A DNA stretch of 55,226 nucleotides, the filler included, from Malassezia furfur (taxonomy: Eukaryota): the NCBI GenBank assembly GCA_052055015.1. It is 3 parts of 3 records of this genome, joined end to end, with 100 filler letters (N's around TTAATTAATTAA, not from the genome) between each part and the next. Parts side by side here need not be neighbours in the genome. Positions count along the whole stretch, not along the records: positions 1 to 18,505 come from JBQJIT010000207.1; positions 18,606 to 36,917 come from JBQJIT010000208.1; positions 37,018 to 55,226 come from JBQJIT010000209.1. The stretch is one strand, 5' to 3'. Below, piece by piece: positions 1,951 to 55,226 of this stretch. The notes beneath the pieces were generated by a model. It was given only the letters and a program-made list of their open reading frames with translations, made no database searches and had not been told where the DNA came from. The stretch's first letter is position 1. The number at the start of each line of letters is the position of its first letter. Made by a program: the position numbers and the translations under genes.

Positions 1951-2754
1951 CTACGATAGCACTAATCCGAAACGCTCGACGACTTGCGCCACAATCGCGG
2001 TCCATTCCAGCATCGCACCGTTGCCTGCGTCAGCCCAATCACGTACCCAGATCGCCGCATGCTAACCGCTTCTCGATGGGGCCAAACACCTCGTAATGCA
2101 ACGTGTCGCGCAGCACATCCAGATGCTGGTCCGTAAGAGGGTGCAGATACATAAGCGTGTTCATCGCAGGATACACCCACGTCGGCGTGTCGGGCGACAG
2201 GGCGCGCAGGAACGACGTCACGACATTGTCGCACAGACCATGCGCAATCTTCGCGAGGGTATTGGCGCTGCACGGCGCAAGAAGCACGACGTCGGCCCAC
2301 CGACGCAGCTGGGTAAATAGCACGCCACGCACCTCGATATGCAGTACGGGGTCGCCCAGCGCCTTCCACGCGCCCCATTCGTCCGCATCGGTCCAGAGCC
2401 GGAGCCGAGGGCCTTGGGGCATCGTCGCGTCTCCGCCCTGCGCAATCGTTTCTGCGGCCTTGTTCATCGTAGAAAGATCTTGCACAGAATAGCTTTCGTC
2501 ATTCAACGCACGAATCGCGTCGCGGTCGACAAAATGCAGCGCGTCGCGCGTCGCGACGACCTGCACTTGGACGTTGGAGTACTGGTGAGCGGCCACAACG
2601 TTCGTACCTTGAGCAATTCCTGTGCAATCAGCGACACCTTGACACTCGCAACGCTCCCGGTGCACGCCAGCACCACATGCAGCGGCCGCTCGGCCGTCGG
2701 CGGCGCTTGGAGCGGCGCATACATCGACCGCAGCGAGCGTGGTACGTCCGTCAT
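1951..2754 (-). CDS. CAB3: Phosphopantothenoylcysteine decarboxylase (HFCD flavoprotein, Hal3/Cab3 family), 3 introns
   Basis: Motifs VVLACTGSVASVK, DPVLHIELRRWAD, APCSANTLAKIAHGLCDN, PAMNTLMYLHP and LACGDLGNGAM are restored by introns at 2582-2607 (26 nt), 2309-2332 (24 nt, in-frame) and 2025-2046 (22 nt). TAG stop at 1951-1953. Confidence 0.88.
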
Positions 2755-2770
2755 GCTATGTGGAGGCTAC

Positions 2771-4141
2771 TTACGCATCGGGTGCGGGGGAAGGCCAACA
2801 CAGCTCGTTGACCTGGGCATCCTGCAGCGTGCGGCGAATCATGCCTTCAAATGAGGCGAGCTGATGGAAGAGGGTCTCGTACTTTTCCTTCACGGCCGCA
2901 TCCACGGGGTACGTGCCCAGACCGGCGGCCAGCGCACGGAACGCCGACACACCGGTATGCACCTCTTCGGTGGTGCTCATCCCCAGCAAGGTCGGCACCA
3001 TGTCCTTGGATGCTGAATTGCGCAGCCCATAGGACAGGGCCGTGTATCCAAGTACATTGTCGGCCGTCACCGGCGCGACATCGGTGACGCTCGCCGCATT
3101 CTTCGCGCGCGCATGTGCCAGTTGCACTGCTTCGAGCAGCTTAGGATCCGCGGGGTGCCACGGGGGAGTACCGCGATCGGAAAAGAGACCCATAGAGAAT
3201 GGCGATGCATTGATAAGCATGGGTGGCTCCCAGTTCGCTTCCGGAGCGCTCGATGGCCGCGCGGCAAATAGCGGCCGCCATGCAGAAAGCAAGTCGGCAT
3301 GGAGTGTGTCGTTGCTGTAGCTGAGGATCACATCGAGCGGGCGGTACGGCGGGTGCGACGCAATCAGGCGCGAAATGCGCACAAGCTCGCCCAGCGGGTA
3401 TCCACTCATGCCCACATTCCGAACAATGCCCTGGTCTTTGAGCTTAAACAGGGTCCGTGCCGCTTCCAACACTTGTTCGTCGCCCGGTCCACGGATTTTT
3501 GCCGCGTCTTCGGGCGCCAGGCCGAGGAGACGGAGTGCCTCTTCTTGGCTGTGGGGTGCGCCTGCGCACGGAAGTCCGACCGCCTGGGCCGCGAGCGGCG
3601 CGCCCTCAGGCGCCTGGGCAATGTCCGGCTGATTGGACACGAACTCGATGTCATGGAGCAGAGCTGCGTCAAGATACGTGGTACCAAGCCGCTTCAAGCT
3701 CCTTTGGATAGACTCCTCGAGCCGCGCGGGCGAGTAGTCAAACTTGTCCTTTTCCGCACCGTAGCGGCCGCACTTGGTGATGAGAAAGTAGGAAGAACGG
3801 GGGTATTCGGGGGCGAGGATGCGAAGTGCGCGGCCCAGGACGAGCTCGGACGGCTCATAATACGCAGATGTATCCAAAGCGTTGATACCGTACCGGAATG
3901 CGAGGCGGAGAGCGCGCACAGCCGCGTTGCTGTACAGCAGTGCGTCGTCATTGTACTTGCCGTGCCCATAAACGCCCCCGCCGAACATCATGGGCGAGCA
4001 TTGTGTCTTGAGATCGGTAAGCGTCGCTGGTTTGGGCCATGGCGCCTCGCCGTCGCGCAAAGGCGCATCCTGCAAGCTGTCAAGCGGCACAAGCTCGCCA
4101 AACGACTCGATTGGCGGATCCTCCGGCAGCGGAGTTGGCAT
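2771..4141 (-). CDS. Aldo-keto reductase, D-arabinose 1-dehydrogenase (Ara2)/L-galactose dehydrogenase-like
   Basis: AKR motifs [19 protein letters not shown] and [34 protein letters not shown]. The likely ATG is at 4141 (MPTPLPED); the upstream part of the track ORF is an antisense shadow of PGK1. Confidence 0.8.
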
Positions 4142-4271
4142 GGTGGAGTGGCTGCGCGAAGCTTCGATGTGATTATGTAATACCTGCGCACCTACCACCG
4201 GCGTTTCCCGGGGCCGGACCGTGGGGAAGTGCACGGGGCGCGCCTCGCCTTGTCTTCCTACCGGAACCATC

Positions 4272-5522: not shown

Positions 5523-5545
5523 GTGTGTGTATGTGATTAGCAACA

Positions 5546-8029: not shown

Positions 8030-9823
8030 ATGGACACGCACCTGGATGCGCTGCAGCGCACACTCGATGCGCTGCATACGCAGCTTGCGTACACCAAGGA
8101 GCAGCAGCAGCATCCGTCGTACTTTACGAATGCCGTGCTGCGCACCAACCAGCTCGACATCCTCGAGCTGATCCGCGACGCCGATCAACTCGAGGCGTCG
8201 CTGTTTGCCTACCCCGCACGCGACGACGGCGCCGAGCGCGCAGGCGATGTACCGCTCGCGCCGCAGCCACGCGCAGTCCATATCCCTACGCCACTGCGCC
8301 GCAGCGCGACCGACGCGCCGGGCGCACACAGCGCGCGCTTCTACCTGCAGGCCGCCGAGAAACTCATGCAGAGCTAGTACGTCCCCGCTTTCTCACGCAG
8401 CCACAACGCGCCGCGCGCACGCAAACACATCCGCATGTTGCTCAAGCGCGACGGCGAGGTGCAGCGGCATATCCAGCGCTACGCGTCCACGATCGAGCAC
8501 GCGAAAAACACCCAGCCTACCCCGGGCAAGGCCCGGCCAAACCGCGCGCGGGCGTCGGACAACGGCGAGTTGCGGCAGCTCCGCGAGGAGATTCAGCGCG
8601 AGAAGATGGAGATTGTTGCGCTGGAGAACATGCTCGCGGAACTCGAGACTGCGCCGCAGCCACAAGCCGTCGAGCAGGCTGCCGAGCCAGTGGACGAGCC
8701 GGCGGCCGAGCGTGCGCCTGAGCCTAGCGCGTCCCCATCGAAGCCAGAACGCACCGCGCGCGCCCAGCCATCGTCTTCACGGACTGCAGCGCGCACGCCC
8801 AAGACCCCGGCGCCCAGTACGCCGTCCAAGGCGCCCCTGGCGCAATCTGTGCGTGCACGCACACCGGAACGGACACCGGCCACTGCGCGTCTTCGGCGCA
8901 CGCTGGACGGCACGCCGCGCTTTGCACAGAGCGTGTCGCAGCCGCCCAGCACGACGCCCGCGCGCCAGTCCCGGCGCCCGCTCGCACAGAGCGTCGCGTC
9001 GCCCTCGACACCAAACCGCCGCCCGCCGCCTGCGTCGCCCGCACGTGCGCTTGGCTCGCCAGCGGTGCGTGCGCCAGCGTCCCCGGCCATGCGTGCGCCC
9101 GCGTCCCCGGCCGTCCGCGCGCCTGCCTCTCCCGCCGTCCGCGCGGCAGCCTCTCCTGCCGTCCGTGCGCCAGCCTCCCCCGCTGTCGGTCGCGCCAAAT
9201 CCGGGACGCCGACGCGCCCGACGCTGCTCCCTCTCGGCCAGGTGCCGGCGACATCCGACGAGCTCGAGCGCATCACGACACTGCTCTGGACGCGGTTTGG
9301 CGAAGCGTTGCGGTACGTTAGCGCCGAGGAGCGCGCGCCGTTCAAAAGCACGTTTGCGCTCCTTGCGTCGCTCGAGTGCTGTGGGCAGGACCCCACTGCG
9401 CTGCAGACGGATGCGCCGGCGTCCGCAGACGACTCGGTGCGCGCGCCAAGCGGCGTGACGTCCCTGGCGACGCAGAGCAGTGCGGGCATACCGCTGAGCG
9501 CGCCGCTGAGTGTCAACACGGTGGTGATGGCGCACGTCATCCTGCTCCTCTTCCGTGCGCCGGCGCCGCACGCCCTCACGCTGCCCACCATCAAGACGCT
9601 CACCGACTCGTGGTGGCGGCAGCGGGGGCAGGACGTGTTCCGTGCGACGGCGGCGACACCCTCGCTGTCGCACGCCGAGGCCGTCCGCCAGGCGGGACTG
9701 GACGCGTCCGAGGTCGACATGGGCGGCGACACACTGGGGTCGCGTGCCGTGTACGGCCTCGTGGCCAAGAAGCTGCTGCGCATCCACCGCGCGGGCGGCG
9801 CAGCGACGATCCGGTTTGCATAG
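8030..9823 (+). CDS. SPC34: DASH/Dam1 complex subunit Spc34-like, with long C-terminal extension; 1 intron
   Basis: The N-terminal YFTNAVL...[16 protein letters not shown] matches my recollection of the Spc34 signature (FTNALL..I..LIRD...E..LF). Intron 8377-8400 (GTACGT...CTCACGCAG) joins it to a coiled coil (ARKHIRMLL...[16 protein letters not shown]) and a Pro/Ser/Ala-rich tail. Confidence 0.72.
9062..9181 (+). repeat. Coding tandem repeat, 5 x 24 bp (A[VM]RA[PA]ASP)
   Basis: Translation reads [40 protein letters not shown], with degenerate codons. Confidence 0.9.
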
Positions 9824-11337
9824 CTATTCGAGTACCTGGATTTTGGGTGTAGTGCCCATCTGCTGCACACGCGGGTCCATGCGGCCCACCGTCGCGTTCG
9901 CGGCCGCAATGTGCGCAAGCTGCTCCGCATCGTCGCGCTCCTTCTCGAGGCGCGCTACCTCGCCATCGAGCTGCACGCCGACAGCGAGCTGCGCCGCACG
10001 TGGCGCCGTAGTATAGGCATGCGCGTAAAACGCCAGCTTCTTGGCGATCCCGCGGTCGGTGGTGCCTAGCATCGCGGCCAGATCGCCCAGCGCATACACC
10101 AGCACCGGTGCATCGTCCGCGTCACGGACGCCTGGGGGAGCAAGTAAGGGGCGAATGTCGCGCAGGAGCATCGCAAGCAGCGCTGCGGCACTCGGTCCCA
10201 CATCGTTCGGACCGAGTGTGTAAAGAAGGTAGAGCCCGGCATCGTCCACACTCGTCAGCATGGTGCTTGCAAGCTTGGGCGACGTGCGTGGGTGTGCAAA
10301 CACAAACGGGAGAAGACGGCGGAGAAGCGTACGTATCGCCTCGCATGTCTCGTCGGACTCGGCAGACGGCGCCGTACCGGCGCGTGGGGTATCGTTGGGA
10401 GCGCGGGGTGCGGGGGTATCAGGGAGGGAGGCACGTGCAGAATCAGTGGACGTAGCAGCCGCAGGCGCCTCGGCATCTTCGAGTGGGGGCGGTTCACCGT
10501 CGCTATCCTCGTCGACAGGGGCTGCAGGAGCCGCTTCAGGCACATGCACCGGCGGCGGGCTGGCTGCAGGCACCCGAACTGGCTCGTTAGGTGGCTGGGC
10601 TCCGCACATGCGGCCCCGTGCCGCCTCCACAGGCAGACGCGCCAGCTGGCCGTGCCGCAGGGCGTACGCATACGCCAGCAGCACTGCGACTACATTGTAC
10701 CGCAAATCCGCACGAACTGCGACGTTTGACGCCGTAAGTTTCTCGACATCGCGCACAAACTCGGTTGTGCCGTCGAGCGTCGTGCGCTCGGTCCACCACA
10801 GCGGCACACCCTCGTCGTCCTCAAAGTACATGCGCGCCGCACGCGACGGGTCGCGCAGCAGCGACTGGAAGCGCTGGCGATCTGCAAGCGAGAGCCGTGC
10901 AAGCATCTCATCGGCATCGCTCCCCACGTCCTCGTCGCCGTCATGCTCTGCGCCGTCGTCATGCTCTGCATCGCTGCTCTCGTCGCTCAGGACACCCTCG
11001 CCAGTCTCGAGACGCCAGAGCAGCTCCATGGTTTTGCGCCTTTCCACGTCGTCCACCGATACATCTTCCTTGGACAGATTCTCACGCGCCGACTGCTGTG
11101 CAAACGGCTCCGAGCACGCGCGGTGCACATTCGCACGGAAGCACGCAAGCGAGCAGTAGGGGAGACGACACGTCGGGCAGTGGTACTTGGCCTCGCGGAG
11201 GAAGCAGCTGCGTGAGCGCATATGCATACATACATTCCGCATATCCGTGCCGTACCGGGCTCTGTGCGCTCGACCTCGTCCCGCGACGAGCGGCGCACAC
11301 GACGCGCCACCCGACGCACGTCAAAGAGGTCGGCCAT
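9824..11337 (-). CDS. HIT-type zinc finger protein (ZNHIT2-like); 1 intron
   Basis: Removing intron 11208-11233 (26 nt) gives CGICFLREAKYHCPTCRLPYCSLACFRANVHRACSEPF (zf-HIT). A LRYNVVAVLLAYAYALR helix follows downstream. Confidence 0.8.
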
Positions 11338-11376: not shown

Positions 11377-12509
11377 TCAAGTGGAGGACGCCGTGGACGC
11401 GAGCGGCGCCGTCCAGCGCGGCCGGTAGTGCACCTGGGGGCGCAGGATATCGTCGGCGCTCTGGATGATACGTAGCTCACGCATCCGCATAATTTTTACA
11501 CGGTCCTCCTCGCTCGCAAGGTGCGAGGGCTGCAGCGGATCAAGACCCTCCTGCTCACCGAGCATTTCCATCGCGCGCGCGGTGCGGATGAGCACCTGCT
11601 GCAGCGACGCCACAGCCAGCGTCACGGCGCGTGCAATAGGCAGAGTGCACTCGCCCTCTACGGGCGCGCCGTACCCGTCGTATGCGGCACGCGCAGGCAC
11701 AGGGACGTCCTCTTCGTGTTCCATAAACCGTGCAACGGTCAGTGCCGAGAACAGGTCGCCCACGCCGCTAAAGTACTCGCCCAGCGACGGGAATTGAAGG
11801 AACCACGGCTGAAGCTCCTTGGTATCTGCATTCCACGTCGAGCCCACGAGCAACATCGCCGGCTTCCCGTCAGGCATGGTGGGCATCGCGCCAATCGCAT
11901 TAAGGTCGTCTTTGCTCAGTTCGAGCGAGGTAATGAGCACATGCGGCACTTGGTACTCGTCGTGCAGCTTCGTCAGCGCCGCCTTCAGTGTCTCGATGGA
12001 GCGAATTTCGATGCCAGAAAGCACCTGAGCCTCAAACTGGTTGGGACAGATGATGGAGGCCAAGTGCAGCATGCGCCGGTAAATCGGCAGCACGTCCGGA
12101 TTCACATACATGCCCCGGTCCATGTCGCCCATGACCGGGTCGAGCAAGTAGACCATGTGTGGGTTCTTTTCGCGCTGCGCACGGATAAGCTTCTCCACCT
12201 CGCCGAGGGCCTCGGGCGACGGTGTGTAGCCCGTCAGCAGCCGGTTGTGCCGCAATAGCTTGTTGCGGTCCATATTGGAAAAGACGTCGGCCAGGTGCGC
12301 GGCGTCAAACCGCAAGCCACCCCAGCGGCCGTACCCCGTATGATTCGAAAACTGGACCGTATTCACAGCGTCAACGTCCCAGCCTAACAGCTGGCAGGGG
12401 AAGGTGGCTGCACGATTCCCTGGCATGAGAAGATGCACGTACCGACATAGCCCGTAGCGACATGGCTCTGGATTGTGAGCAGCCGATAGGACGCTGTATC
12501 GCTGCTCAT
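11377..12509 (-). CDS. BUD16: Pyridoxal kinase (PdxK/Bud16 family); 1 intron
   Basis: Intron 12420-12442 (23 nt) restores LLTIQSHVATGYVGNRAATFP. Also NTVQFSNHTGY, LDPVMGD, PNQFEA and FSGVGDLFSAL. Confidence 0.92.
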
Positions 12510-13860: not shown

Positions 13861-16800
13861 ATGGCGACGCGAGCACAGAGGCTCGAAGCCCTCGCGGCGC
13901 TGAAAGCCTCGCGCACCGGTGGCACACGTGTGCATGTACGTCCATTGTCTGACGCAGCCGAAAACCGAGGATGACGACGTGATCTACGACGAGGTCTCGG
14001 AGGAGACGTACCAGTCGATTGTCCGCGGCCGGATGATGGAAGACGACTTTATCGAGGATGATGACGGGAGCGGCTACGTCGACCATGGTCAGGACGAGTG
14101 GGAGACGCGTGAAGAGAGCGAGCCGGATACCGAGGACGAGCAAGAATACTACGAGCGCACCGGGCGCCGCAAGCCCAAGAAGGGCGCCAAGCGCACGCGG
14201 CGGACCGCTGCGGGCCAGCTAGACTACATGGGCCGCCCCAAGAGCGATGCGCTGCGGCCCCAGCGCGAGGCGGGCCCGAACAAGGAGTCGGAGGACGCGT
14301 TCATGTCGCAGCTCTTTGGCAACTTGCAAGGGTCGCTCGCGACGCCGGCGCGCCCCGCGGTGCCGAAGCTGCGGACGGGCAGCTACGAGTCACCCTCGGC
14401 CATGCTTGCACGGAAACGGAAGCAGCTGCATGCGACCTCGCTGCCGCCATTGCAGGACAGCTCGTCGTCCACCGAGGCGAGCAGCGACCCGCCGGAGCTC
14501 GGCCAGGAGGCGTGGACGAGCGATGTGCATGTCGCGGGCAGCGACTCGCCGCCGTGGGATATGAGCAAGATGGATGTCGTTGAGACGCCGATGCCGGCCA
14601 AGAAGCTCAAGAGCGAGCCGGCTGCGGAGGCCGACGACGAAGAGGATTTCGGCGTGATGCGTGTCGAGGGCAAGCGGCTCGACCGGCTCGTGAGCGGCAA
14701 GGCGCAGGCGCCGGTGCGTGCCGAGGTGCGTCCGCCCGTGCCCGCGACGCCCGCGCCGGTGGCGCGCCAGGCGCCGCACGCCAAGTCGACGCCCGCGCAC
14801 CTGCAGTCGTGGCATGCCGTGCACGAGGGGCTCGACTCAGCGAGTTCGCCGGCGTCCAGCGTGGCATCGCCCAAAGACGCGGCGCAGGCCGGTGCGGCGT
14901 CGTCGCAGATCGAGTGCTTCCAAGAGGACCGGTCGGTGCACTTTTTCTGGTTCGACCACTTTGAGAGCCAGGGCACGGTGCATCTGTTCGGCAAGGTGTG
15001 GGACCAAAGCAGCAAGCGCTACGTGAGCTGCTCGGTGAGTGTGGGCGGCATCGAGCGGTGTGTCTTTTTGCAGCCGCGCGACCGGATGCTGGTCAACGGG
15101 CATCCGTCCGACAAGGTCCCCGGCGAGGACGACGTGTACGAAGAGTTTGACGCGATCCGTACGCGGCATGGCATCCAGGCGTGGCTAGGCAAGTGGGTTA
15201 CGCGCAAGTACGCGTTTGAGTTGCCCGACGTGCCCGCCGAGGGCGAGTACATGAAGATCAAGTACGGCTTCGACGAGCCGCAGCTGCCGATGGACGTGAG
15301 TGGTGCGACGTTTGTGCGTGCATTCGGCACCAACACCTCGGCGTTTGAGCTGTTTGTGGTGAAGCGGCGCATCATGGGCCCGTGCTGGCTGCGCATCGAG
15401 AACGCGAGCGTGCGCAGCGACGCGCCGCAGACGTGGTGCAAGCTCGAGCTGGAGGTCGACGAGCCCAAGTCGGTGGCGCCGTTTGCGGACACAGACGCCA
15501 ACGCGCCGAAGGAGATGCCGCCCGTGACGATCATGAGCCTCTCGACGCGCTCCGTGGTGAACTACAAGGAGAACAAGCGCGAGATTGTCGCGGTGAGCGC
15601 GCGGACGTGGCGCGACACCTCGCTGGAGAACCCGACGCCGCCCGAGCAGCTGCCCTCGACGTCGTTCACGGCGGTGCGCCCGCTCGGCCCGTCGTTCCCC
15701 GCGCGCTTTGAGCAAGAGGCGCGGCAGGGGCGCACCAAGATCCAGGCGCTAAAGTACGAGCGTATGGTGCTGAACAGCTTCTTGGCGCAGGTGCACCTGA
15801 ACGACCCCGACGTGGTGCTGTCGTACGACTTTGCGGGCGCGAACCTCGACATTCTGCTGCACCGCATGCGCGACCTCAAGTGCGAGCAGTGGAGCAAGCT
15901 GGGCCGCCTGCGCCGCACCAAGTGGCCGCTGCTCAAGCAAGGCATGAACACGCGTGTGCTCGCTGGGCGCCTGGTGTGTGATTTGTCGAGCGACACGGCC
16001 AAGGGCATGATCAGCTCGACGACGTGGTCGCTGAGCGAGATGTGCCGCACCTACCTCAACACGCAGCGCGAGGACATCGACCCCGACGACGTGGCGTCCT
16101 ATTTTGACTGCACGGCGCCGTCGCCCGAGCGCCTGCTGACGTTTGTGCGGCACTGTGAGGTGGATGCCTACTTCCAGATGGCGATCGCGAGCCGCGTGCA
16201 GCTCCTGGCGCTCACCAAGCAGCTGACGAATCTCGCGGGCAACGCATGGTCGCGCACGCTGAACGGTGGTCGTGCGGAGCGCAACGAGTACATTTTGCTG
16301 CACGAGTTCCACCGGAAAAAGTACATTTGCCCCGACAAGATCTCGGCATGGGAGAAGAAGGCGCTGCGTGCCGCCAAGGACGACGGCGACGCGCCGCACA
16401 AGAAGGAGAAGTTCAAGGGCGGTCTCGTGTTTGAGCCGAAGCGCGGGCTGTGGGACCGCTACATCCTCGTGATGGACTTCAATTCGCTGTACCCCAGCAT
16501 CATCCAGGAGTTCAACATCGACTTTACGACGGTGGAGCGCGTCGGCGTCGAGGGCGACGCGGTGCCCGACATCCCGTCGTCGGACGTGGGGCAGGGTGTG
16601 CTGCCGCACCTGATTGCGACGCTCGTCAACCGCCGGCGGCAGGTCAAGGGCCTGATGAAGGACAAGCAGGCGCCCGCGCTCAAGCAGCTCCAGTGGAACA
16701 TCAAGCAGCAGGCGCTCAAGCTCACGGCCAACTCGATGTACGGCTGTCTGGGCTTTGAGAACTCGCGCTTCTACGCGCGTCCGCTCGCGGCGCTCACCAC

Positions 16801-18889: not shown

Positions 18890-21413
18890 ATGGCCTTCTG
18901 GGCACGCCTGCGCGCGCACCAGGTGCGTGCGCCGCCGCGGCGCGCACTGACCTGCAGGTGTTTGGCGCCGACACAGATGTAGGCAAGACGATCTTTTCCA
19001 CCGGACTCGCGCTCGCGACCGCCGCGTGCCCGCTCGACGGCGCGGCGCACGCAGAGCGCGTCGCCTACCTCAAGCCGGTCTCGACGGGGCCCGCACACGA
19101 GGCCGACGCAAGGTACGCACGCCCGCACGGCTCACGCCCAGCCACCTCGCGACGTTTGCGCCCCACGTACACAGCCAGACGCTCATCCAGTTCGCCGACC
19201 CCGTGTCGCCGCACCTCGCCGCGGTGCAGGCGACCGGATCGCTGCCGCCGAACGCGACCGACGCCGCCATCGCGCAGCAGGTGCGCGCCTGGCTCGACCG
19301 GTGCGCACACCCCGACGCACACGGCGCCGCATTCGACGCCGCGATCGTCGAGACCGCCGGCGGCGTGCACTCGCCGGCGCCCAGCGGCACGTCGCAGGCC
19401 GACCTCTTGCGCGCGCTCCGCCTGCCCGTCGTGCTCATTGGCTCGAGCCAGCTCGGCGGGATCAGCACGACGCGCGCAGCACTCGAGAGCCTGCGCATGC
19501 GCGGCTACGACGTCGACGCCGTGCTCCTCTTCCCCTCGCCGCGCTACCAAAACGATACCTACCTGCAGCAGCTGCTCCGCGACGAGCTCGACCTGCCCGT
19601 GTTTGCCGTCGGCGGGCCGAGCGCGCAGGGATGGGGGGCGCCGCCGATGCGCGCGCCGCACACCGCCGACGACGTCGCACAGATGCGCACCTACTACCAC
19701 GGCCTCGTCCACGGCACCGACGAGCGCCCCGGCCTCCTGCCCGTCGTGCGCCATCTGCGCGAGCGGCACGCGGCGCGGCACGCCGAACTCACGACGCTCG
19801 CCCCGCGCACGTACGCACAGTGCTGGTGGCCGTTCACGCAGCACACGCGGTACACGCCCGACGACGTGATGGCTATCGACAGCGCGCATGGCGACACCTT
19901 CGCCGTGTACGACCGCGACGCCCTCCGCCCGATGGTCGACGGCTCGGCGTCGTGGTGGACGCAGTGCGTGGGGCACGCGCACCCGCGCCTTGCAAGCGCC
20001 GCCGCGTACGCGGCAGGGCGCTACGGCCACGTCCTGTTCCCCGGCGCCGCGAACGCGCCGGCGCTCCAGCTCACCGAGCGCCTGCTCGGCCGCACGCCGC
20101 ACTCGTTCCGCGCGCCGGGGCACTGGGCGGACCGCGTGTTCTTTAGCGACGACGGGAGCACCGGGATGGAGGTCGCCCTGAAGATGGCGCTCCAGTCGGC
20201 CGTGCGGCGCTACGAGCCGCAGCCCACCGCCGCTGCGACGCACGCACGCATCGCGCCGGGGCGCGAGGCCGGCGGACTCGGCGGGCGCCCGCGCCGCGAG
20301 TGGCAGGTGCTTGGGCTGCAGGGCAGCTACCACGGCGACACGATCGGCGCGATGGACGCGTGCGAGCCGAGCGTCTACAGCGAGCACGTCGCTTGGTACC
20401 GCGGGCGTGGGCAGTGGCTCGCGCCGCCGACGCTGCACATGCGCGCGGGGCAAGTCGAGGTGCAGCTGCCGGCGTCTGTGTGCGCGGACGGCGCGCCGAC
20501 GGCCACGTATGCATCGCTCGACGACGTGTACGACGTGGCGCACCGCCTCGAGCACGACACACTCGCCGCACAGTACCGCGCCGCGCTCAACGATGCACTC
20601 GAGCGCCTCGTCCTCGTCGAGGGACACCGCTTCGGCGCGCTCGTCCTCGAGCCGCTCGTGATGGGCGCGGGGGGGATGGTGTTTGTCGACCCGCTCTTCC
20701 AGCGCGTGCTCGTCGACGTGGTGCGCGCACGCGAGGACCTGTTTGCGCAGCGCGACGCGCCGCTGCGCACGCCGGTGCCGCGCACGCCACACGCACCCGG
20801 CGCGTGGCGCGGCCTGCCCGTCGTGTTCGACGAGGTGTTCACGGGCCTCTTCCGTCTGGGCGTCGCGAGCGCCGCCGAGGTGCTCGGCACGACGCCCGAC
20901 ATTGCGTGCTACGCCAAGATCCTCTCGGGCGGCGTCGTGCCGCTCTCAGTGACCCTGGCCACGGAGGACATCTTCGCGACCTTTGCCGCCTCCCCCGAAA
21001 AGACGCACGCGCTCCTCCACGGGCACAGCTACACGGCGCACCCGGTGGGGTGCGCGGTCGCCAACGAGACGCTCACGATCCTCGACACACTGCACGCGCA
21101 GGGCGCATGGCACGCGCACCAGCGCGCGTGGGGGCGCGTGTGGAGCTTCTGGGACCGCGCGTTTGTCGAGCAGCTGTCGCACCACGAGCGCGTCACGAGC
21201 GCGATGGCGCTCGGCACCGTGCTCAAGATCGAGCTCGCGGACGCGCACCAGGGCTACGCGTCGAACGCCGCCGCGTCGCTGCTCGACGAGCTGCGCACCC
21301 ATGGCGTGCACCTACGGCCACTGGGCAACGTGGTCTATGTGATGTGCAGCCTCACCACGCCCGCCGACGTCCTCGACGCGGTGCGGACGCGGCTGCTCGC
21401 CGCACTTTCGTAG
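18890..21413 (+). CDS. BIO3-BIO1: Bifunctional dethiobiotin synthetase / 7,8-diaminopelargonic acid aminotransferase (BioDA, BIO3-BIO1 fusion); 2 introns
   Basis: BioD part: VFGADTDVGKT, YLKPVSTG, VETAGGVHSP, LGGISTT. BioA part: DGSASWWTQ, FSDDGSTGMEVALKMA, SYHGDT, VFDEVFTG and PLP lysine ACYAKILSGG. Introns at 18923-18957 (35 nt) and 19113-19141 (29 nt). Confidence 0.93.
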
Positions 21414-34558: not shown

Positions 34559-35113
34559 GCGGCCGGCGGCGGCAGCGGCTGCTCGTCGGGCACGCTGACG
34601 AAGCGCACGAGCCGCGCAAGCACCGCACGGTCGATGTCGTAGTCAATCGCAAGCTGGTCAAGCGTCGCGTCCTTGGGCGCACCACGGTACTCTTCCAGCA
34701 GGCGCACCAGCTCGGGCGCACTCAGCCCCACGGCCGGCTGCGCGGCGTCCTCGCCTTCGTGCTGCGCACGTGCCTGAAGAATGCCGAGCATGGCGTCCGA
34801 CTGCGTAAGCAGGCCCCGACGTACCTTGCCCGGGCGCTCCTGCAGCCCACGCACCTCGACGGCGCCGAGCGCGTGCAAGTTCTGCAGGAACTGGGGGTCG
34901 CGCGCGTCCTGCAGGATGGCTGGGTCAGCCGGCAAACTGCCTACATTGGTCCTTGGTGAAACGCGACGTGTCGTGCGTCTCGGCTCCGTGCGGCGCCGAG
35001 GCATGTGCACCCGGCGCCTGCGGCATCGCTCGCGCTCCAACGCCGGGCGCCGCAGGCTTCGAGGCCGCAGTCGCGCCCAGCTTGCGCGCCGGCTTCGAAC
35101 TGGCGCTGCCCAT
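34555..35113 (-). CDS. Small protein with N-myristoylation motif, NDUFAF4-like (complex I assembly factor candidate); 2 introns
   Basis: Starts [11 protein letters not shown]. Introns 34920-34944 and 34801-34824 give [24 protein letters not shown]...LVRLLEEY...[22 protein letters not shown]. The stop codon overlaps the MSH2 stop (CTAG). Confidence 0.6.
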
Positions 35114-42591: not shown

Positions 42592-43210
42592 ATGGCGACT
42601 GTTGCCCAGAAGATCCTCCGCACGGCGAACGCGCCCAACGTCCCCCCCACCGAGACCGAGGTCCTCGTGTGCCAGGCCCTGATTGACCTGGAGAACCACG
42701 TCCCGGAGCTCAAGGCTGAGCTGCGCCCCCTCCAGGTCAGCTCGGTGAAGGAGGTCGACGTCAAGGGCGGCAAGAAGGCCTACGTGGTCTTTGTGCCCAT
42801 GCCCCAGCTCAAGGCCTTCCACAAGATCCAGCAGCGGTATGTATTTGCGTTGCGAAAGAACCGTGTGCTAACCTTGCAGGCTAACCCGTGAGCTCGAGAA
42901 GAAGTTCTCGGACCACCACGTCGTGTTTGTTGGCCAGCGCCGCATCCTCCCCAAGCCGAGCAGCCACAGCCGCGCCAAGCAGCCCCGGCCCCGCAGCCGC
43001 ACCCTCTCGTGGGTGCAGGACGCCATCCTTGACGACCTCGTGTTCCCCACCGAGATCACCGGCAAGCGCACCCGTGTCGCGACCGACGGCAGCAAGCAGA
43101 TCCGCGCTGCTCTCGACTCGAAGGACGCGACCAGCCTCGAATACAAGCTGGACACGTTCTCGAGCGTGTACCGCAAGCTCACTGGCAAGGACGTTGTCTT
43201 CTCGATCTAA
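42592..43210 (+). CDS. RPS7: 40S ribosomal protein eS7; 1 intron
   Basis: Contains [36 protein letters not shown] and [13 protein letters not shown]. Intron 42837-42879 (43 nt, GTATGT...GCTAAC...GCAG). Confidence 0.97.
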
Positions 43211-43800: not shown

Positions 43801-45087
43801 ATGGACGAAGTGGTGCCGAAGCTGTGGATCGGCGAGCTGCCGTCGTGCCTCACGCCCGATTACCTGGCCCATGCCAATATCCACTGGATTGTGTCGTGTA
43901 TGCGTAATCCGCCGACGCCGCCCCGCGTCCCAGAGGCCGACGGTAGCACACGTACCATTCCGCAAGACCATGTGCTTGTCATCCCCATGGACGACCAAGA
44001 AGATACCCCTGCCTACATCTACTTTTCTCAGTGCAACAAATTTCTTGCCAATGCGCTGCATGACTCATGGGAAGATGACGAAGAGCCCACCGAGGATACG
44101 CAAGATCCGCACTACGTCGAAGGCCTGACCCTCCGCCAGGGCCGCCCCGGCCTATGGAGCCCGCACGCCGAAGGCGCCGTGCTGGTGCACTGCCAGGCCG
44201 GATGCTCACGTAGTGTCACGGTATGTCTACGTGCTCACCTAGATGGTCGCCGCGTACCTTATGTGGAGCCGGGATTTGACGGTTGCGCAAGCGCTCGCTC
44301 TGATCCGGCGCCAGCGTCCCATGGCGGAGCCCAACGAGGGATTTATGCGCCAGTACGTGCGGCGCCTGCTCACCCAGACTCGAATTGTTCCAACAGGAAA
44401 AGTGCCGCGTCAACCTGCAGAGCCGCGACGTGCGGCGCTACCTCATCAGCCGAACGAATGCGCTGGATGGCCCTGTGACGCCCGACATGCTGCTGACGAC
44501 CTACCCCTACACGGCGCCGTCGGATCCCTACTCGGACGTGCGCATTGACGCGCAGGACGGCGCCGAAGTGGCCGCGCAGGCGCCCACCACGTGCCTTCGC
44601 TGCAAAAAGTGCCGGCACGAGCTCGCGATCGATCAGCATGTCGTGCAGCACGAGCCAGGCAAAGGCAAGATGGCCTTTGAGCCGCACCGGCGCGACGGAG
44701 CGCGGCGCGGCGGCGACTGGACGCCGACAAGTGCTGATGGCGCCGTGAGCGCGGCACAGCCAACACTGCCGCCGCATCTCGCGCGCATCCGTGCTGGGAT
44801 TGCGGCGCAGGCGGCGCAGACCAACTTGCTGCACTCGCCACAGTGCTCGGCGTACTTTGTCGAGCCACTCAAGTGGATGGTGGAGTCGAGCAACTTGGTC
44901 GAGGGCGAGTTGGCCGGGCGGCTGCTGTGTCCCAACGTGCGGTGCCACGCGAAGCTCGGCACGTGGACCTGGGCTGGCTCCCAGTGCGCCTGGTACGTCG
45001 GTGTGTGACTGACACAGTGGAGCCTGGGTGACGCCGGCGTTTGCACTACAGCGTGCCAAAGTCGATCAGGTGCGGCGATATCTATAG
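43801..45087 (+). CDS. YVH1: Dual-specificity phosphatase Yvh1/DUSP12 with C-terminal zinc domain; 3 introns
   Basis: Active site VLVHCQAGCSRS, EPNEGF, LRCKKCRHEL, YFVEPLKWM and CPNVRCHAKLG..W.GSQCACGAWVTPAF. Introns at 44221-44242, 44353-44377 and 44993-45017. Confidence 0.92.
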
Positions 45088-45089
45088 GT

Positions 45090-45514
45090 CTAGCCCAAGA
45101 AATTGACCACGAAGAAGTGCAGTACAATGGAGGCGAACACAAACTGGCCAAACGCGCTGCGTGTGAGTGGGCCGACGTACTGTCCCTGGGAAGAGGCGTC
45201 GGCGTTGGTGAGCGCCTTGGGGTCCGTCTGCAGGCGGAGCGCGAGTGTGAGCACAAACTGGCCGACGGTCGCCGCGAAGCTGTGTGAGCGGCGCGCACGC
45301 ACCCCGCAATGAACGAGTTGAACGGGTAGTTGGAGATGAACATGCAATACGCGAGCTGCGCGATGCCAGTCACCAGCAGAAACGCGAGGAACGCATCGAG
45401 CACCTTAAACGGAGCCGGCGTCGTCTGCTTGTACGACGACACAAGCTTGTGCAGCGCGCTCGACACGTCGCCGGCCGCCGACGGTGCGGGTGTCGGTGCC
45501 TTCTTTGGTGGCAT
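45090..45514 (-). CDS. OST2: Oligosaccharyltransferase subunit Ost2/DAD1; 2 introns
   Basis: Contains KVLDAFLAFLLVTGIAQLAYC, NYPFNSFIAG|FAATVGQFVLTLALRLQ and LHFFVVNFLG*. Introns at 45280-45302 and 45157-45180. Confidence 0.93.
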
Positions 45515-49096: not shown

Positions 49097-49232
49097 CAAT
49101 ACGCGCCGCGACCGCAACGGAGGAGCCGCACGACGCCCTCGACGCGGCGCTTATTCATCGGCTGAGTCAGCAGGACGCTGGGGCCACCGAGGCAGTGAAC
49201 CTGCCCGTCAGGCCGCACCCACCTTTGTGACC

Positions 49233-49943
49233 ATGGCCAGCGCACCGCCCTCGGTACAGGACGACTTGAACCCAACGCGTACGTGCCCCGCCCACCACTC
49301 ACGCAGCCACGGCAGGGTACAACCCCGGTCAGAAAAAGACACTTCAGGAGTACGCCGCGCTCGATGCGGAGGACGAGAGTTTGCGGCGCTGGAAGGAGTC
49401 GCTCGGCATCAGCACGAGCGCCGGCGCAGGCACTCTCGACCCGAACGCGCCCAAGCTCACCATTCACTCGCTGTCGCTCGTGAGCGATTCGATCGCGTCG
49501 GGCGGCATCACACTCCAGCTCGACCAGCCCGGCGATTTGGAACGGGCGAGCAAAACCCCGCTCCAAATCCCCGAGGGGATCGAGTACGCCGTGGCGATCC
49601 GCTTCACGTACGTGTGCCCACTCACCCAGCGTCGGACGCGAAGTGCTCTCGGGCCTCAAGTACCTCCAGGTAGTCCGCCGCGCCGGTGTGCCGGTCGATC
49701 GCATGGAGGAGATGATCGGGTCCTATCCCCCGCGCGCCGAGCCGTACGAAAAGCGCTTTGCCCCGAGCGAGGCGCCGAGCGGGCTGCTCGCGCGCAGCGG
49801 CTCCAACAGCGTGCGCACGCGGTACGTCTGCGGGCCTCACACAGCATCCTCGATGACGACGGTGTGGTGTATGCTGACTTTACGTGGTCCTTCAAGGTGC
49901 GTACGCGGTGCACCGCAGCTGACCGCAGTTGGTCAAGGCGTAA
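49233..49943 (+). CDS. RDI1: Rho GDP-dissociation inhibitor; 4 introns
   Basis: Contains GYNPGQKKTLQEYAALDAEDESLRRWKESLG, EVLSGLKYLQVVRRAG, EEMIGSY and EAPSGLLARSG. Introns at 49279-49306, 49608-49629, 49822-49844 and 49897-49928. The last acceptor is ambiguous; using 49918 moves the stop to 49957. Confidence 0.9.
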
Positions 49944-49975: not shown

Positions 49976-50649
49976 CTATGTACTCCCGGAACGTTGTACA
50001 GAGGAATCGTCGGCATCTGACGCCGAGGCCTGACTCGTTTTGCGTTGCTGCATGCGCCTGGGTGAGCCAAGAGGCAACGTACTTGCGCGCCTGCAGGATC
50101 ATTTGCGCCTTGCGCTCCTTGAGCGCCTTTTCACGGTCCTGTGGCTGTGCCTCCCATTGACACTTGACGGGCTCGGCGGCGTTGGGGACCGCATCCGCGC
50201 TAGCCACGCGCTCGTCGAGGTGGAAACGCTTAATCAGGTCCGGCGTCCCGCTCGTCGACGGGGCGCTCGTGGCAGTGGACGGTGTGCGCGGCGTCGTCGC
50301 TGTCGCGGGTGGTGCGTTGGCGGCGCGCTGCATCTCGGCGACGCCCGGGAAGTGCGGCGGTGGCTGCGTCAGACGTGACCACGTACCATAGGAAGGTATC
50401 CGTCCTGCAAGATGCGCTCACAGGTCGCTTCGGCGCTGCCGGAGCGCAGCAGGTCGTATCGGATCGACGGTTCCGGAATGTGGGGAAACATGGTCTTGAC
50501 CGTTTCGACCATTTGCTGGGTCTGCACAGCATTGGACAGTTCTGTGCGCCTGCTCCCTGTCTTAGCCTTGCCGACGTACCGCCTCCGATCATGCGCAGCA
50601 TCATCCACAGCACCAGGAGCGCGAACAGCGCTCCCATCAGGTCGTTCAT
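49976..50649 (-). CDS. ER membrane CUE-domain ERAD factor (Cue1/Cue4-like); 3 introns
   Basis: N-terminal TM helix, CUE domain (MVETVKTMFPHIPEPSIRYDLLRSGSAEATCERIL) and a Ubc7-binding-type helix (W...REKALKERKAQMILQARKRM). Introns at 50557-50579, 50364-50386 and 50058-50082. Confidence 0.85.
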
Positions 50650-50733: not shown

Positions 50734-51187
50734 ATGTTTGTCACGGCGGCTAGGCAGACGAACGCGCCCACGACGTTCAGCAAACTGCACAAGCAGTATG
50801 TGCAGAACCTGTACCGCCGGTTTCTGCGCAACTCGCTGGACTGGCACATCCGCCGCGATCTTTGGCGCGCGGACGCACAGCGGATCCGTGCCGAATTCGA
50901 GCACAACCGCAACGTAAAGAACCCGCGCGAGCTCGCGACGATCCTGCAGCAGGCCGAGCAGCAGCTCGCGAGTCGCCAGCACCCGGACCCATACAAGCGT
51001 ACGTTGCTTTGCATGCTAACGCAGCCCCGACCTACGTGGGTGGTACCAAGTGGTATGTCGGCACTGACGGCGCAGCTCATGTCCAGGGAGCGCAACTTGC
51101 CGGTACGTTGTGGACGCCCGCTGACCGCAGCCGCGCATGTTCACGGACGAGGAAAAGACGGAGTCGCTGAAGGACCAGCGCGTGTAG
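50734..51187 (+). CDS. NDUFB9: Complex I accessory subunit NDUFB9/B22 (LYR family); 3 introns
   Basis: Contains VQNLYRRFLRNSLDW, IRAEFEHNRNV and HPDPYK|PPTYVGGTKW|ERNLP|PRMF. Introns at 50999-51024, 51053-51086 and 51103-51130. Confidence 0.9.
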
Positions 51188-52957: not shown

Positions 52958-53219
52958 CCTTCGGAAGCGGGAGCGGGGATAGGCGTCTCGTGCCGTTCCT
53001 GGCACGAGCGATCGACGCAGCAAGCGCTGTGTCTCGTCCTGTGGCGCGTAGCCGCCCCTAAACCGTCGATGTCGCGTCCCTGCTGCTGGTCTGCACCGCT
53101 GGCGTGGTGTGCACTCCGGCCACGGCCCCTTTCTTCGATCACGGAAACGTCCCGGTGGAAAAAAGAAAAACGCGCCCGGCCGGCGTCGCCCCTCCCCCCG
53201 ATCCCCCGATCGCGTCACC

Positions 53220-54470
53220 ATGGCCGCCGCGCCGGCGCCCGCGGACGACGGCGCGTACATCCGGCGCACGTACGCGCACTTTGCGCGCAACGGCGTGCCG
53301 AACGACGGTGTGGATGCGGGCGAGGAGCATACGCGCCACAAACACGCGCCGCCGCTGTGGAACGCGCCGCCGGCTAGCCGCATCCTGCCCGCGCACGCGT
53401 TCGCCCAAGACCTCGCGCGGCAGCAGTCGCTCGACCGCTTTGGGTTCTACGATGCGCGCCCGGCGCACGCCCATGCCGAGCCGCTCGTGCTCCCGCGCAA
53501 GGCGCAGGCTGCCAAGCCGCCGAGCGCGGCGCATGCCCAGCAGCTGCGCGCCCGCCCCGCCGACGTACGTCGCGACGCGCGCCGCGTCGCCAAGTGGGCC
53601 CGTATGCTCGAGCTGCGCGACGGACGCGCGTACCTGCGTGCACCCCATGCCGTCGTCCGCCGCCGCGTGTACAAGGGCATTCCGGATGCCTGGCGCGGCG
53701 CAGTTTGGTTCGCGCTCGCCCAACACCCCGACGTGCAGATGCCCGACGAAGCGCTGCGGCTGCCCAGCACCCACGACGTGCAAATTGACCTTGATGTGCC
53801 GCGCACGATGCGCGGACACGTACACTTTCACACACGGTATGGGCGCGGGCAGTGCGACCTGTTCACGGGCCTACATGCAGCGAGCCTATTGTGTGACGAG
53901 TGCGGCTACTGCCAGGGCATGGGGCCGCTCCTGGGCACCCTGCTGCTGTACATGGTGCCGGCCGACGCGTACGCGATGCTCGTGCAGCTGCACACCAAAT
54001 ATGCCTTCCACGATCTTTTCCGCCCCGGCTTCCCGGGGCTTCGCACCGAGCTGTTTGTCCTGCGTACCCTGCTCGAGCACTATACCCCCCGCGCGGCGCA
54101 CGCAGTGGCGTCGTGCGGCGTTGCGCCGAGCGCGTTTGCGACGGGGTGGTACATGACCCTGTTTTCCGGCGTGCTGCCCTTTGCGACGCAGCTGCGGCTC
54201 TGGGACGCATTCCTCCTCGACGGGCGCGACGTCATCACGCTCGCGGCCGTCGCGGTGGTGCTTGCGATCGAGCCGCGCCTCGGTACGCCGCCGACCGACT
54301 GGGCCGTCGAGGCGCTCAGTGCGCCCCTGCTCCCCGAAAGCGACGACGCGCTGTTGCAGTGGATCGCGGCGCGCCTCGATGACGCACGTACGCAGCGCCT
54401 CCTGCGCGACGCGCGCGCCGCATGGGCCGCGCACTGTGCGGACGGCACCGCCGACGACGTCTTCTTGTAG
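53220..54470 (+). CDS. TBC-domain Rab GTPase-activating protein
   Basis: Contains DRFGF, KGIPDAWRGAVW, the IDLDVPRT arginine finger, the GYCQGM glutamine finger and WYMTLF...QLRLWDAFLLDG. Confidence 0.92.
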   Translation: MAAAPAPADDGAYIRRTYAHFARNGVPNDGVDAGEEHTRHKHAPPLWNAPPASRILPAHAFAQDLARQQSLDRFGFYDARPAHAHAEPLVLPRKAQAAKPPSAAHAQQLRARPADVRRDARRVAKWARMLELRDGRAYLRAPHAVVRRRVYKGIPDAWRGAVWFALAQHPDVQMPDEALRLPSTHDVQIDLDVPRTMRGHVHFHTRYGRGQCDLFTGLHAASLLCDECGYCQGMGPLLGTLLLYMVPADAYAMLVQLHTKYAFHDLFRPGFPGLRTELFVLRTLLEHYTPRAAHAVASCGVAPSAFATGWYMTLFSGVLPFATQLRLWDAFLLDGRDVITLAAVAVVLAIEPRLGTPPTDWAVEALSAPLLPESDDALLQWIAARLDDARTQRLLRDARAAWAAHCADGTADDVFL

Positions 54471-54498
54471 CCCACGTGACGGTGCACGTCCCTCCACG

Positions 54499-55226
54499 AT
54501 GACCGACAGCCTGCCGCAGCTGTCGGCGCTGTGCCGCCGTGGTACGTAGTGCGCGCTCATCCAGTCATTCTGCGGAATTTGGCAGGTAGGTGTGCGTGCT
54601 GATGCAGCGGTGCACGACCTGGGCGATATGCCGTACCGGCTCGCGCGGCCCATCTTACAGCAGTGTCGGCCTGAGCAGCTGCGCGAACTCGAGGCGGCCT
54701 CGCCGGTATGTCGCCACACTGACGCAGCACCTCGCCGAGGACACCGAGGGTACGCTGCCAGCTCACGCAGAACTCTGGCAGCACGCGTGCCTGCGCGACT
54801 TCTCCGATCTGCGCAAGCTCCACGAGGACGGCGCACTGCCGCCGCCCGCGAGCTGGCGGACGCTGTACAATGTAGGTGTGTCTCTCACGCAGGACAAGCA
54901 GCAGCAGATCGAAGCGGCCAAGGCCGCAGCGACCGCCAAAATCAAGGGGCGGTACGCCGAGCACAGTGCACAGAAGGATGCCAAAAAAATGGTCGTGAGC
55001 GACGTCAACTTGCGCCCGGCACGCGCGCGCGCCAAGGCGCCCAAGGCGCCGGTCACCGCCGGGCAGGCCATGATGGCCCGTGCGCGTAACGGGTCGGCGA
55101 TGCAAATGCGCCGCATGATGCTCATCCCGCCGCGGTCGGGGGCACGCGCAGCACCCTCATCCGCGCAGGGGTTTGTGCGTGCGGCGCCGGCACCGCGTCC
55201 GCGCGTTGCCGAGGACGCCGCGCCGC
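54499..55226 (+). CDS. ELA1: Elongin A-like protein (3' partial); at least 5 introns
   Basis: Spliced product MTDSLPQLSALCRRVILRNLAAVHDLGDMPYRLARPILQQCRPEQLRELEAASPHLAEDTEELWQHACLRDF...SWRTLY (BC box plus Elongin A domain). Introns at 54542-54564, 54586-54607, 54706-54727, 54750-54770 and 54872-54892. Confidence 0.85.

Follow-up and report, generated by a model that had tools for sequence, protein, structure and literature searches.

General features of the window

The DNA analysed here is a 55,226-base stretch from Malassezia furfur (hereafter the window), with a G+C content of 64–68% and roughly 32–34 genes. About 20 of these genes, including TRM6, MSH2, RhoGDI, NDUFB9, Elongin A, and genes for ribosomal protein S7e and the DNA polymerase alpha catalytic subunit, are interrupted by very short introns, which are the subject of this report. 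A total of 47 GT-AG introns, spanning positions 2025 to 54892 and mostly only 21–26 nt long, were catalogued in 20 genes. They are very probably ordinary U2-type introns that have been compressed to little beyond three signals (donor, branch box, and acceptor) and that represent the gene architecture of the genus at its short extreme.

The exon translation of TRM6 shares 99% identity with M. brasiliensis and M. furfur proteins, that of RhoGDI shares 94% identity with an M. furfur protein, and that of NDUFB9 shares 99% identity with an M. brasiliensis protein. Because of these identities, the window is assigned by sequence to the nuclear genome of the M. furfur / M. brasiliensis group, in line with an initial annotation of the same stretch, which had guessed a Malassezia-type genome. 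Genuine coding frames are recognizable by a G+C content of approximately 0.85–0.9 at codon position 3, compared to approximately 0.45 at position 2. An Rfam scan of the window identified no snRNA and no other Rfam family, and a tRNA scan of the window found none.

Identification of introns and excess over chance

Both strands were scanned with a strict composite motif consisting of a GT[AG]NG[TC] donor, a CTNA[CT] branch box, and a YAG a few bases further on. The motif occurs 68 times, and 44 of the occurrences are ≤27 nt in length. Second-order Markov simulations (50 runs) put the number of motifs of ≤27 nt expected by chance in the window at 2.76 ± 1.58, indicating an approximately 16-fold excess. 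The observed lengths peak sharply at 21–26 nt, compared to a flat distribution in the simulations. The simulated counts exclude chance as the origin of the short motif matches. All strict matches of ≤30 nt correspond to catalogue introns or to nested alternative ends of catalogue introns. The remaining strict matches are all longer than 30 nt, and several are located inside presumed coding ORFs, for example, 32243–32291 in MSH2.

Gene models were built with a dynamic programme that reads codons and is free to jump candidate introns, using a codon log-odds score trained on twelve long ORFs with high G+C at codon position 3, and were then curated gene by gene. Chaining of the longest ORFs with no coding score was uninformative at 65% G+C, with long ORFs present on both strands. 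A relaxed-motif version of the dynamic programme fused neighbouring genes (e.g., 28604–34959) and was kept only for three non-strict introns. Among the 17 multi-exon models tried, all are stop-free ORFs once the intron at 51053–51086 is taken in its 34-nt form.

The catalogue was rebuilt with no recourse to the intron list of the initial annotation, and the 47 introns and their range were recovered independently. The initial annotation had placed them in 19 genes; the additional gene found here is the host of a doubtful upstream intron at 49201–49222. The lengths are 21 nt (4 introns), 22 nt (11), 23 nt (11), 24 nt (6), 25 nt (4), 26 nt (3), and 28 nt (2), with one each of 29, 30, 32, 34, 35, and 43 nt. 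The median is 23 nt, the mean 24.7 nt, and 39 of the 47 introns fall within 21–26 nt. The median and all other length classes of the earlier tally are reproduced, except that 22 nt and 24 nt had been counted ten and seven times, respectively.

Anatomy of the splice signals

The donor hexamers are GTACGT (27 introns), GTATGT (5), GTGCGT (5), GTACGC (4), GTAGGT (3), and others (3). G1, T2, and G5 are present in all 47 introns, A3 and T6 in 41 each, and C4 in 37. The extended donor consensus GTRNGY is found in 46 introns, with GTACGA as the single exception. Branch use was predicted from the motif: CTCAC is the commonest box (19 introns), followed by CTGAC (15), CTCAT (5), CTAAC (3), CTGAT (2), and CTTAC (2), so that CTNA[CT] describes 46 of the 47; the remaining box is CTAAG. 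The acceptor is CAG in 45 introns and TAG in two. The 3' end follows the pattern C(−9) T(−8) S(−7) A(−6) C(−5) N(−4) C(−3) A(−2) G(−1).

The putative branch A is located at intron position 16–18 in 28 introns (range 15–35). It stands at −6, exactly 5 nt before the intron end, in 33 introns (range 4–8). Pyrimidines make up 54% of the spacer between donor and branch box and 40% of the stretch between branch box and YAG, and the longest pyrimidine run is ≤4 nt in 37 of the 47 introns; no polypyrimidine tract was observed. The introns have a G+C content of 62%. The U12-type donor [AG]TATCCTT was matched by none of the 47 donor hexamers, and by their signals the introns are classified as U2-type (major) GT-AG spliceosomal introns. 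The initial annotation had described these donor and branch motifs, a donor-to-branch A distance of about 15–20 nt, frequent CTCAC boxes, and no polypyrimidine tract, and the rebuilt catalogue agrees on each.

Some exons are as small as the introns that flank them. Very small internal exons measure 28 and 16 nt in NDUFB9 and 21 and 22 nt in Elongin A, and such tiny exons between tiny introns are found at 51025–51130 (NDUFB9) and 54565–54749 (Elongin A). The 16-nt exon of NDUFB9 (51087–51102) is backed by alignment to the Exobasidium, Grifola, and Somion orthologues. The acceptor of the intron that precedes it is not the earlier CAG at 51075 but belongs to a second branch-box-plus-CAG unit, which ends at 51086. 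The 23-nt form 51053–51075, which also contains a complete branch-box-plus-CAG unit, was rejected and the 34-nt form kept, because the shorter form breaks the frame. The skipped CAG suggests that closeness to the branch box counts, and not merely being the first AG. This intron is a candidate for alternative 3' splice-site use.

Introns with a length divisible by three (3n) number 11 of the 47, compared to 15.7 expected; the depletion is not significant (one-sided p = 0.096). Selection against 3n introns, as described for Paramecium, is not evident here.

Excision of the introns restores genes

Three lines of evidence were used at the level of reading frames and proteins. In a codon-frame test, the best codon-score frames of the two flanks of each intron (up to 120 nt per flank) were compared; the test is independent of homology and has a chance success rate of 1/3. 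The flanking frames differ by the intron length modulo 3 in 40 of the 47 introns (binomial p = 3.3e-13).

Second, Pfam domains were scanned exon by exon, not on the joined sequence, and their coordinates run on contiguously over junctions in the S7e, DSPc, DAD, Rho_GDI, and Elongin_A families (Table 1), the two Elongin_A junctions being tested jointly. In MSH2, residues 2–567 of exon 2 correspond to human MSH2 residues 16–584, and residues 2–274 of exon 3 correspond to residues 588–852. Pfam searches with short first exons gave no match, and a PDB search with the 22-residue first exon of the pyridoxal kinase gene also gave none. The PDB coordinates of the exons of the dethiobiotin synthetase / DAPA aminotransferase (BIO) gene are not contiguous and are thus uninformative on 19113–19141.

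Third, non-Malassezia orthologues were aligned to the genome with a protein-to-genome aligner that applies a flat penalty to any GT...AG jump of 15–90 nt and gives no bonus for motifs. All six introns of TRM6, three of the four in RhoGDI, and all three in NDUFB9 were recovered exact to the base by at least one query. A 24-nt in-frame, stop-free intron within the PHD finger of the ING-family gene was recovered with nearly all ING homologues. Multiple alignments with outgroup sequences from Pseudozyma, Tilletiaria, Sporobolomyces, Crucibulum, Cryptococcus, Microbotryomycetes, Blastobotrys, Exobasidium, Grifola, and Somion are free of indels at every junction of TRM6, RhoGDI, and NDUFB9. Within low-complexity sequence of the ING gene, the aligner also proposed in-frame GT-AG 'introns', which were discarded as inconsistent between queries.

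Homology-level support was obtained for 24 of the 47 introns. It was counted where non-Malassezia orthologues recovered the exact coordinates, where Pfam or PDB coordinates ran on contiguously, or where orthologues lack the intron. The claim of the initial annotation that excision restores a reading frame or a conserved motif is borne out by these counts, and DNA and protein evidence together support the view that the segments are real spliceosomal introns.

Several points weigh against this view. The GT-AG ends of all 47 introns and the frequency of the motifs are partly due to construction, because termini and motifs served as search criteria. Seven introns fail the codon-frame test; most of these failures are attributed to flanks that overrun short terminal exons or the end of the coding sequence. 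For the 23 introns outside the homology-supported 24, the evidence is motif and reading frame. Nine 3n introns contain no in-frame stop and keep the frame open if retained, and only five of them have homology-level support (24410, 25368, 31459, 45157, and 54750). Two entries are doubtful as coding introns: 8377–8400, which follows a first exon of 11 nt, and 49201–49222, which gives only a short upstream ORF. The aligner invents in-frame introns in low-complexity regions, so a single recovery is weak evidence, and the mode of recognition proposed below is inferred in its entirety.

Many of these points would fit a catalogue that is partly over-called, with a minority of the 47 segments being retained coding sequence, alternative isoforms, or chance motifs. 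The candidates for this are the 3n segments with no stop, the two doubtful entries, and the introns beside very short terminal exons. About 2.8 chance motif matches are expected in the window, and the introns 30716–30736, 31732–31752, and 34502–34525 are not recoverable by homology. However, strict matches of ≤30 nt are all frame-consistent within genes, or nested alternatives of such matches, and all five stop-free 3n introns that were put to a test by homology or against orthologues lacking the intron proved to be introns. We regard partial over-calling as possible but rather doubtful; it is the only live rival, and among the 23 entries with no homology-level support a handful may be retained, alternative, or false.

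Orthologous introns in other Malassezia loci

Four other Malassezia loci (L001 to L004) were obtained from one metagenome scan with a TRM6 alignment. They have a G+C content of 55–56% and share 67–80% identity with the window in the best segment, and the neighbours of TRM6 are syntenic in these loci. The TRM6 spans compared are 24554–26087 in the window, L001:2947–4351, L002:2935–4350, L003:2932–4344, and L004:1888–3290. A greedy search that adds one intron at a time stalled on the orthologous loci where two introns need to be removed jointly, and full protein-to-genome alignment was used instead.

The TRM6 introns of these loci are located at the same residue and in the same phase as those of the window, in differing subsets. 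L001 and L002 contain intron 5 (27 and 28 nt, respectively) and intron 6 (34 and 35 nt), with introns 1–4 absent. L003 contains introns 1 (32 nt), 5 (31 nt), and 6 (30 nt), with introns 2–4 absent, and L004 contains introns 1 (25 nt), 2 (25 nt), and 4 (24 nt), with introns 3, 5, and 6 absent. The window alone has intron 3, and no intron is common to all five loci. Thus, TRM6 has six introns in the window compared to two or three in the other loci. The window introns are 22–24 nt long compared to 24–35 nt elsewhere, being 2–13 nt shorter than their orthologues in this small sample. Outside TRM6, the Mpp10 intron of the window is absent from L001, L002, and L003; Mpp10 in L004 has a 26-nt intron whose position was not matched to that in the window. 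The first intron of the KPWE-domain gene (24410–24439) is absent from L001 and L002. Continuous coding sequence where relatives lack the intron is strong evidence that the window segments are non-coding. The variation in presence and absence of TRM6 introns could serve to date losses or gains of introns within Malassezia.

Introns in deposited gene models

Three deposited proteins of M. brasiliensis and M. furfur (P0001, P0054, and P0072) use the catalogue junctions, indicating that these very introns are already present in public annotation. This bears on the possibility that the frame breaks are indels of a draft assembly or of sequencing and that the splice-like motifs are coincidental. The window is indeed a draft containing two 100-nt blocks of N and linker. 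Such errors, however, would be 1–2 nt in size, not blocks of 21–43 nt complete with donor, branch, and acceptor. Nor would they account for the motif excess, for eleven 3n segments that break no frame, for orthologous introns that four independent assemblies carry at identical residues and phases, or for the junctions shared with the three deposited models. We consider an indel origin extremely improbable.

Other deposited models differ from the catalogue. Among 17 named Malassezia models of three genes, six (P0002, P0057, P0062, P0064, P0074, and P0080) deviate exactly at junction positions. One of the five TRM6 models deviates, that of M. furfur CBS 9595, with three deletions. Three of the seven RhoGDI models deviate: M. 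yamatoensis has an 8-residue insertion and a truncation, M. nana a 10-residue insertion, and M. cuniculi a deletion and an altered end. Two of the five NDUFB9 models deviate, with the two micro-exons missing in M. psittaci and a garbled stretch in M. equina. These deviations are in keeping with mis-splicing by software and suggest that tiny introns are retained or misplaced in public annotation. A gene finder or read mapper whose minimum intron length exceeds about 20 nt would break or mistranslate many Malassezia genes. The initial annotation had warned that gene finders with ordinary minimum intron sizes would mis-annotate such genes. The deviating models bear this warning out. Annotators of the genus already set minimum intron lengths of 10–20.

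Inventory of introns

All 47 introns are listed in Table 1.

Table 1. Introns catalogued in the window. Motif refers to the composite splice motif and frame test to the codon-frame test; recovered x/y, found exactly with x of y orthologous queries; 3n, length divisible by three.
Gene	Position	Strand	Length (nt)	Motif	Frame test	Other observations
PPC-decarboxylase-like flavoprotein	2025..2046	-	22	strict	failed, flank overruns stop	clean ORF on removal
PPC-decarboxylase-like flavoprotein	2582..2607	-	26	relaxed	passed	donor GTACGA; exon 1 resembles N-terminal residues 12-43 of human PPC decarboxylase 1qzu (E 0.007)
Unknown ORF 8402-9823, doubtful start	8377..8400	+	24	strict		first exon follows a possible ATG; in-frame TAG at donor; no Pfam match
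zf-HIT protein	11208..11233	-	26	strict	passed	exon 2 begins at zf-HIT profile position 11 of 30, placing the first CxxC in exon 1
Pyridoxal kinase	12420..12442	-	23	strict	passed	exon 2 residue 1 = residue 21 of solved pyridoxal kinase structures, which leaves about 20 residues to come from upstream
DNA polymerase alpha catalytic subunit	13936..13957	+	22	strict	passed	exon 2 begins at DNA_pol_alpha_N position 20 of 66
Dethiobiotin synthetase / DAPA aminotransferase	18923..18957	+	35	strict	failed (33-nt first exon)	clean ORF; no junction-level homology
Dethiobiotin synthetase / DAPA aminotransferase	19113..19141	+	29	strict	passed	flanking exons match AAA_26 positions 7-47 and 67-171
Mpp10	23774..23796	-	23	strict	passed	orthologues in L001, L002, L003 continuous here with no gap
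KPWE-domain protein	24283..24305	-	23	strict	passed	alignment to intron-less orthologues gapped nearby; L004 gene has a 24-nt phase-2 intron
KPWE-domain protein	24410..24439	-	30	strict		3n, stop-free; L001 and L002 orthologues continuous across junction
TRM6, intron 1	24918..24939	+	22			phase 1; recovered 2/4; gapless alignment
TRM6, intron 2	25044..25066	+	23			phase 0; recovered 3/4
TRM6, intron 3	25368..25391	+	24			3n, stop-free; phase 1; recovered 4/4
TRM6, intron 4	25536..25557	+	22			phase 1; recovered 3/4
TRM6, intron 5	25691..25713	+	23			phase 2; recovered 3/4
TRM6, intron 6	25817..25838	+	22			phase 0; recovered 4/4
ING-family PHD protein	30622..30643	+	22	strict	passed	recovered 1/11; next exon = ING profile positions 9-30
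ING-family PHD protein	30716..30736	+	21	strict only		3n, stop-free; not recovered by ING homologues
ING-family PHD protein, inside PHD finger	31459..31482	+	24			3n, stop-free; recovered 10/11; exon 4 begins at PHD position 23 of 47; retained form scores 13.3 bits against cut-off of 24
MSH2, after 18-residue first exon	31732..31752	+	21	strict		3n, stop-free; first exon too short for homology
MSH2	33460..33482	+	23			human MSH2 coordinates contiguous, counting residue 568, split codon, and residue 1
MSH2, before 11-codon last exon	34502..34525	+	24	strict only	failed (short last exon)	3n
Unknown gene	34801..34824	-	24	strict	passed	3n, stop-free; no Pfam match
Unknown gene	34920..34944	-	25	strict	passed	stop codon within intron
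Ribosomal protein S7e	42837..42879	+	43			longest intron; Ribosomal_S7e exon 1 ends at 72, exon 2 starts at 74, split codon 73
Dual-specificity phosphatase	44221..44242	+	22			DSPc exon 1 ends at 89, exon 2 starts at 90
Dual-specificity phosphatase	44353..44377	+	25	strict	passed
Dual-specificity phosphatase	44993..45017	+	25	strict	failed (70-nt last exon)	clean ORF; internal stop
DAD1/OST2	45157..45180	-	24			3n, stop-free; DAD exon 2 = 56-82 plus 5 residues, exon 3 starts at 89
DAD1/OST2	45280..45302	-	23			DAD exon 1 ends at 54, exon 2 starts at 56, split codon 55
Upstream of gene 47636-49096, possible 5'-leader intron, doubtful	49201..49222	-	22	strict		ORF given by splicing stops at main ATG
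RhoGDI	49279..49306	+	28			recovered 2/4; gapless alignment
RhoGDI	49608..49629	+	22			recovered 4/4; Rho_GDI 108/110
RhoGDI	49822..49844	+	23			recovered 4/4
RhoGDI, before 15-nt last coding exon	49897..49928	+	32			recovered 0/4; sole support is alignment of conserved C-terminal LVKA / ITKE
CUE-domain protein	50058..50082	-	25	strict	failed	clean ORF
CUE-domain protein	50364..50386	-	23	strict	failed	internal stop
CUE-domain protein	50557..50579	-	23	relaxed	passed	branch box CTAAG
NDUFB9 (LYR protein)	50999..51024	+	26			recovered 3/3
NDUFB9	51053..51086	+	34			recovered 2/3, third query giving a 4-nt-shifted equivalent; followed by 16-nt exon
NDUFB9	51103..51130	+	28			recovered 1/3; gapless against 3 non-Malassezia orthologues
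Elongin A (ELA1)	54542..54564	+	23	strict	passed	internal stop
Elongin A, after 21-nt exon	54586..54607	+	22	strict	passed	internal stop
Elongin A	54706..54727	+	22			Elongin_A exon 3 ends at 32, exon 5 starts at 41; 22-nt exon 4 plus split codon fill exactly the 8 missing positions
Elongin A	54750..54770	+	21			3n, stop-free; Elongin_A continuity joint with 54706..54727
Elongin A	54872..54892	+	21	strict	passed	3n, stop-free

The doubtful intron at 49201–49222 lies close to the start of RhoGDI. The RhoGDI start codon (+ strand, 49233) and the ATG of the short upstream ORF on the − strand share a palindromic CCATGG (49230–49238). The 22-nt intron-like segment comes after the − strand ORF, in the leader of gene 47636–49096.

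Two identical 100-nt blocks, each composed of 44 N, TTAATTAATTAA, and 44 N, are located at 18506–18605 and 36918–37017. The TTAATTAATTAA segment carries stop codons in all six frames. The blocks look like artificial spacers that string separate contigs together, or like masked stretches. The window may thus represent three contigs (1–18505, 18606–36917, and 37018–55226), and the apparent order of genes on either side of a block may be artificial.

Proposed mode of recognition

Each intron can be viewed as a unit of a GTACGT-like donor, a spacer of 6–9 nt with no particular composition, a CTSAC box with its A at −6, one free base, and CAG. Such a unit would be recognized across the intron (intron definition). 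U1 and then U6 would pair with the donor, and U2 would pair with a branch box only about 5 nt downstream. As 3' splice site, the first suitable AG at a fixed distance of about 5 nt from the branch A would be taken, with no help from a polypyrimidine tract. The donor-to-branch distance (16–18 nt) and the branch-to-end distance (5 nt) in the window are well below the usual values of model yeasts and mammals.

A more speculative reading, which we offer tentatively, is that introns in the M. furfur / M. brasiliensis lineage have been compressed beyond those of other Malassezia to a near-fixed unit of 22–23 nt, perhaps at or near the physical limit of a fungal U2-type spliceosome, and that more intron positions are kept than in its relatives. 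The proposed unit would consist of the donor hexamer, a spacer of about 7 nt, CTSAC with A at −6, and CAG, with the exons in between often only 16–22 nt long. If this is true and undescribed, the lineage would offer a culturable, transformable yeast in which minimal donor-branch and branch-acceptor distances can be measured, and it could show whether U1 and U2 fit on one 22-nt intron simultaneously. A culturable yeast with such introns would also be a convenient test of early spliceosome assembly on little RNA.

Comparison with known systems

Very short introns are a known, RNA-verified feature of gene architecture in Malassezia, and the phenomenon is not new. Malassezia genes are described as having 'very short introns' in a passage of a review (PMC7426719). 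For M. sympodialis ATCC 42132, the consulted sections of Zhu et al. (2017; PMC5389616) report 5350 curated introns with a mean of 30 bp, 99% of them supported by RNA-seq, as well as 829 peptides on splice junctions and a mapping intron range of 10–2000 bp. For M. restricta KCTC 27527, the minimum intron length in annotation was set to 20 and to 15, according to part of PMC6473144, and 2150 introns with an average of 37.2 bp and a median of 30 bp are given for M. restricta in part of PMC9241646.

The window resembles M. sympodialis and M. restricta in belonging to the same genus and in having compact genes with GT-AG introns of a few tens of bases. In contrast, its introns are shorter and more tightly distributed (median 23, mean 24.7 nt) than the published values of about 30. 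In a literature search largely without subscription journals and supplements, no length mode, branch position, or motif was found for any Malassezia; the length distribution may be shown in Figure S8 of PMC5389616. Because very short introns have already been published for the genus, the window adds detail rather than a new phenomenon. The same search found no paper that describes a lineage at the short extreme, the A at −6, exons of 16–22 nt, or the junction deviations of 6 of 17 deposited models. As judged from the sequence, the residual interest would lie in the shorter and tighter length class, the A at −6 rule, the tiny exons, and the lineage-specific retention of intron positions.

Outside fungi, a close parallel is the ciliate Stentor coeruleus. 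Its introns are 15–16 nt long, approximately 76% A+U, and show no strong branch consensus; in the 15-nt introns the branch A is at position 10, 5 nt from the end, and the pairing boxes of U1, U2, and U6 are reported to be conserved (PMC9505925, in part). This parallel bears on whether the window introns require a specially modified spliceosome, with changes in U1/U2/U6 pairing, loss of U2AF-type recognition, or an altered SF3b/Prp8 geometry, for example, the short spacing being an adaptation and not simply tolerated by a standard machinery. The initial annotation had favoured such an adapted spliceosome. The narrow donor-to-branch and branch-to-end distances, the absent polypyrimidine tract, the prevalence of CTCAC, and the shortening relative to the orthologous introns of the four other Malassezia loci would all suit such a modification. 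However, the conserved pairing boxes of Stentor indicate that tiny introns alone do not show an altered spliceosome. We consider a modified spliceosome conceivable though unlikely, and ordinary U2-type introns at the short extreme of the genus remain the preferred reading.

The window introns are like those of Stentor in being near-minimal U2-type introns and in the 5-nt spacing between branch and end. They differ in their high G+C content, their strict CTSAC box and GTACGT donor, and in being 6–8 nt longer. The resemblance is one of working between unrelated lineages, and the window introns are not of the ciliate type. Short spliceosomal introns, about 20 nt in length, are also known from nucleomorphs (Bigelowiella, 18–21 nt) and microsporidia, both named in the initial annotation; there they are AT-rich and occur in reduced genomes with reduced spliceosomes. 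Malassezia, unlike these, has a GC-rich genome and is a basidiomycete that grows freely and can be cultured.

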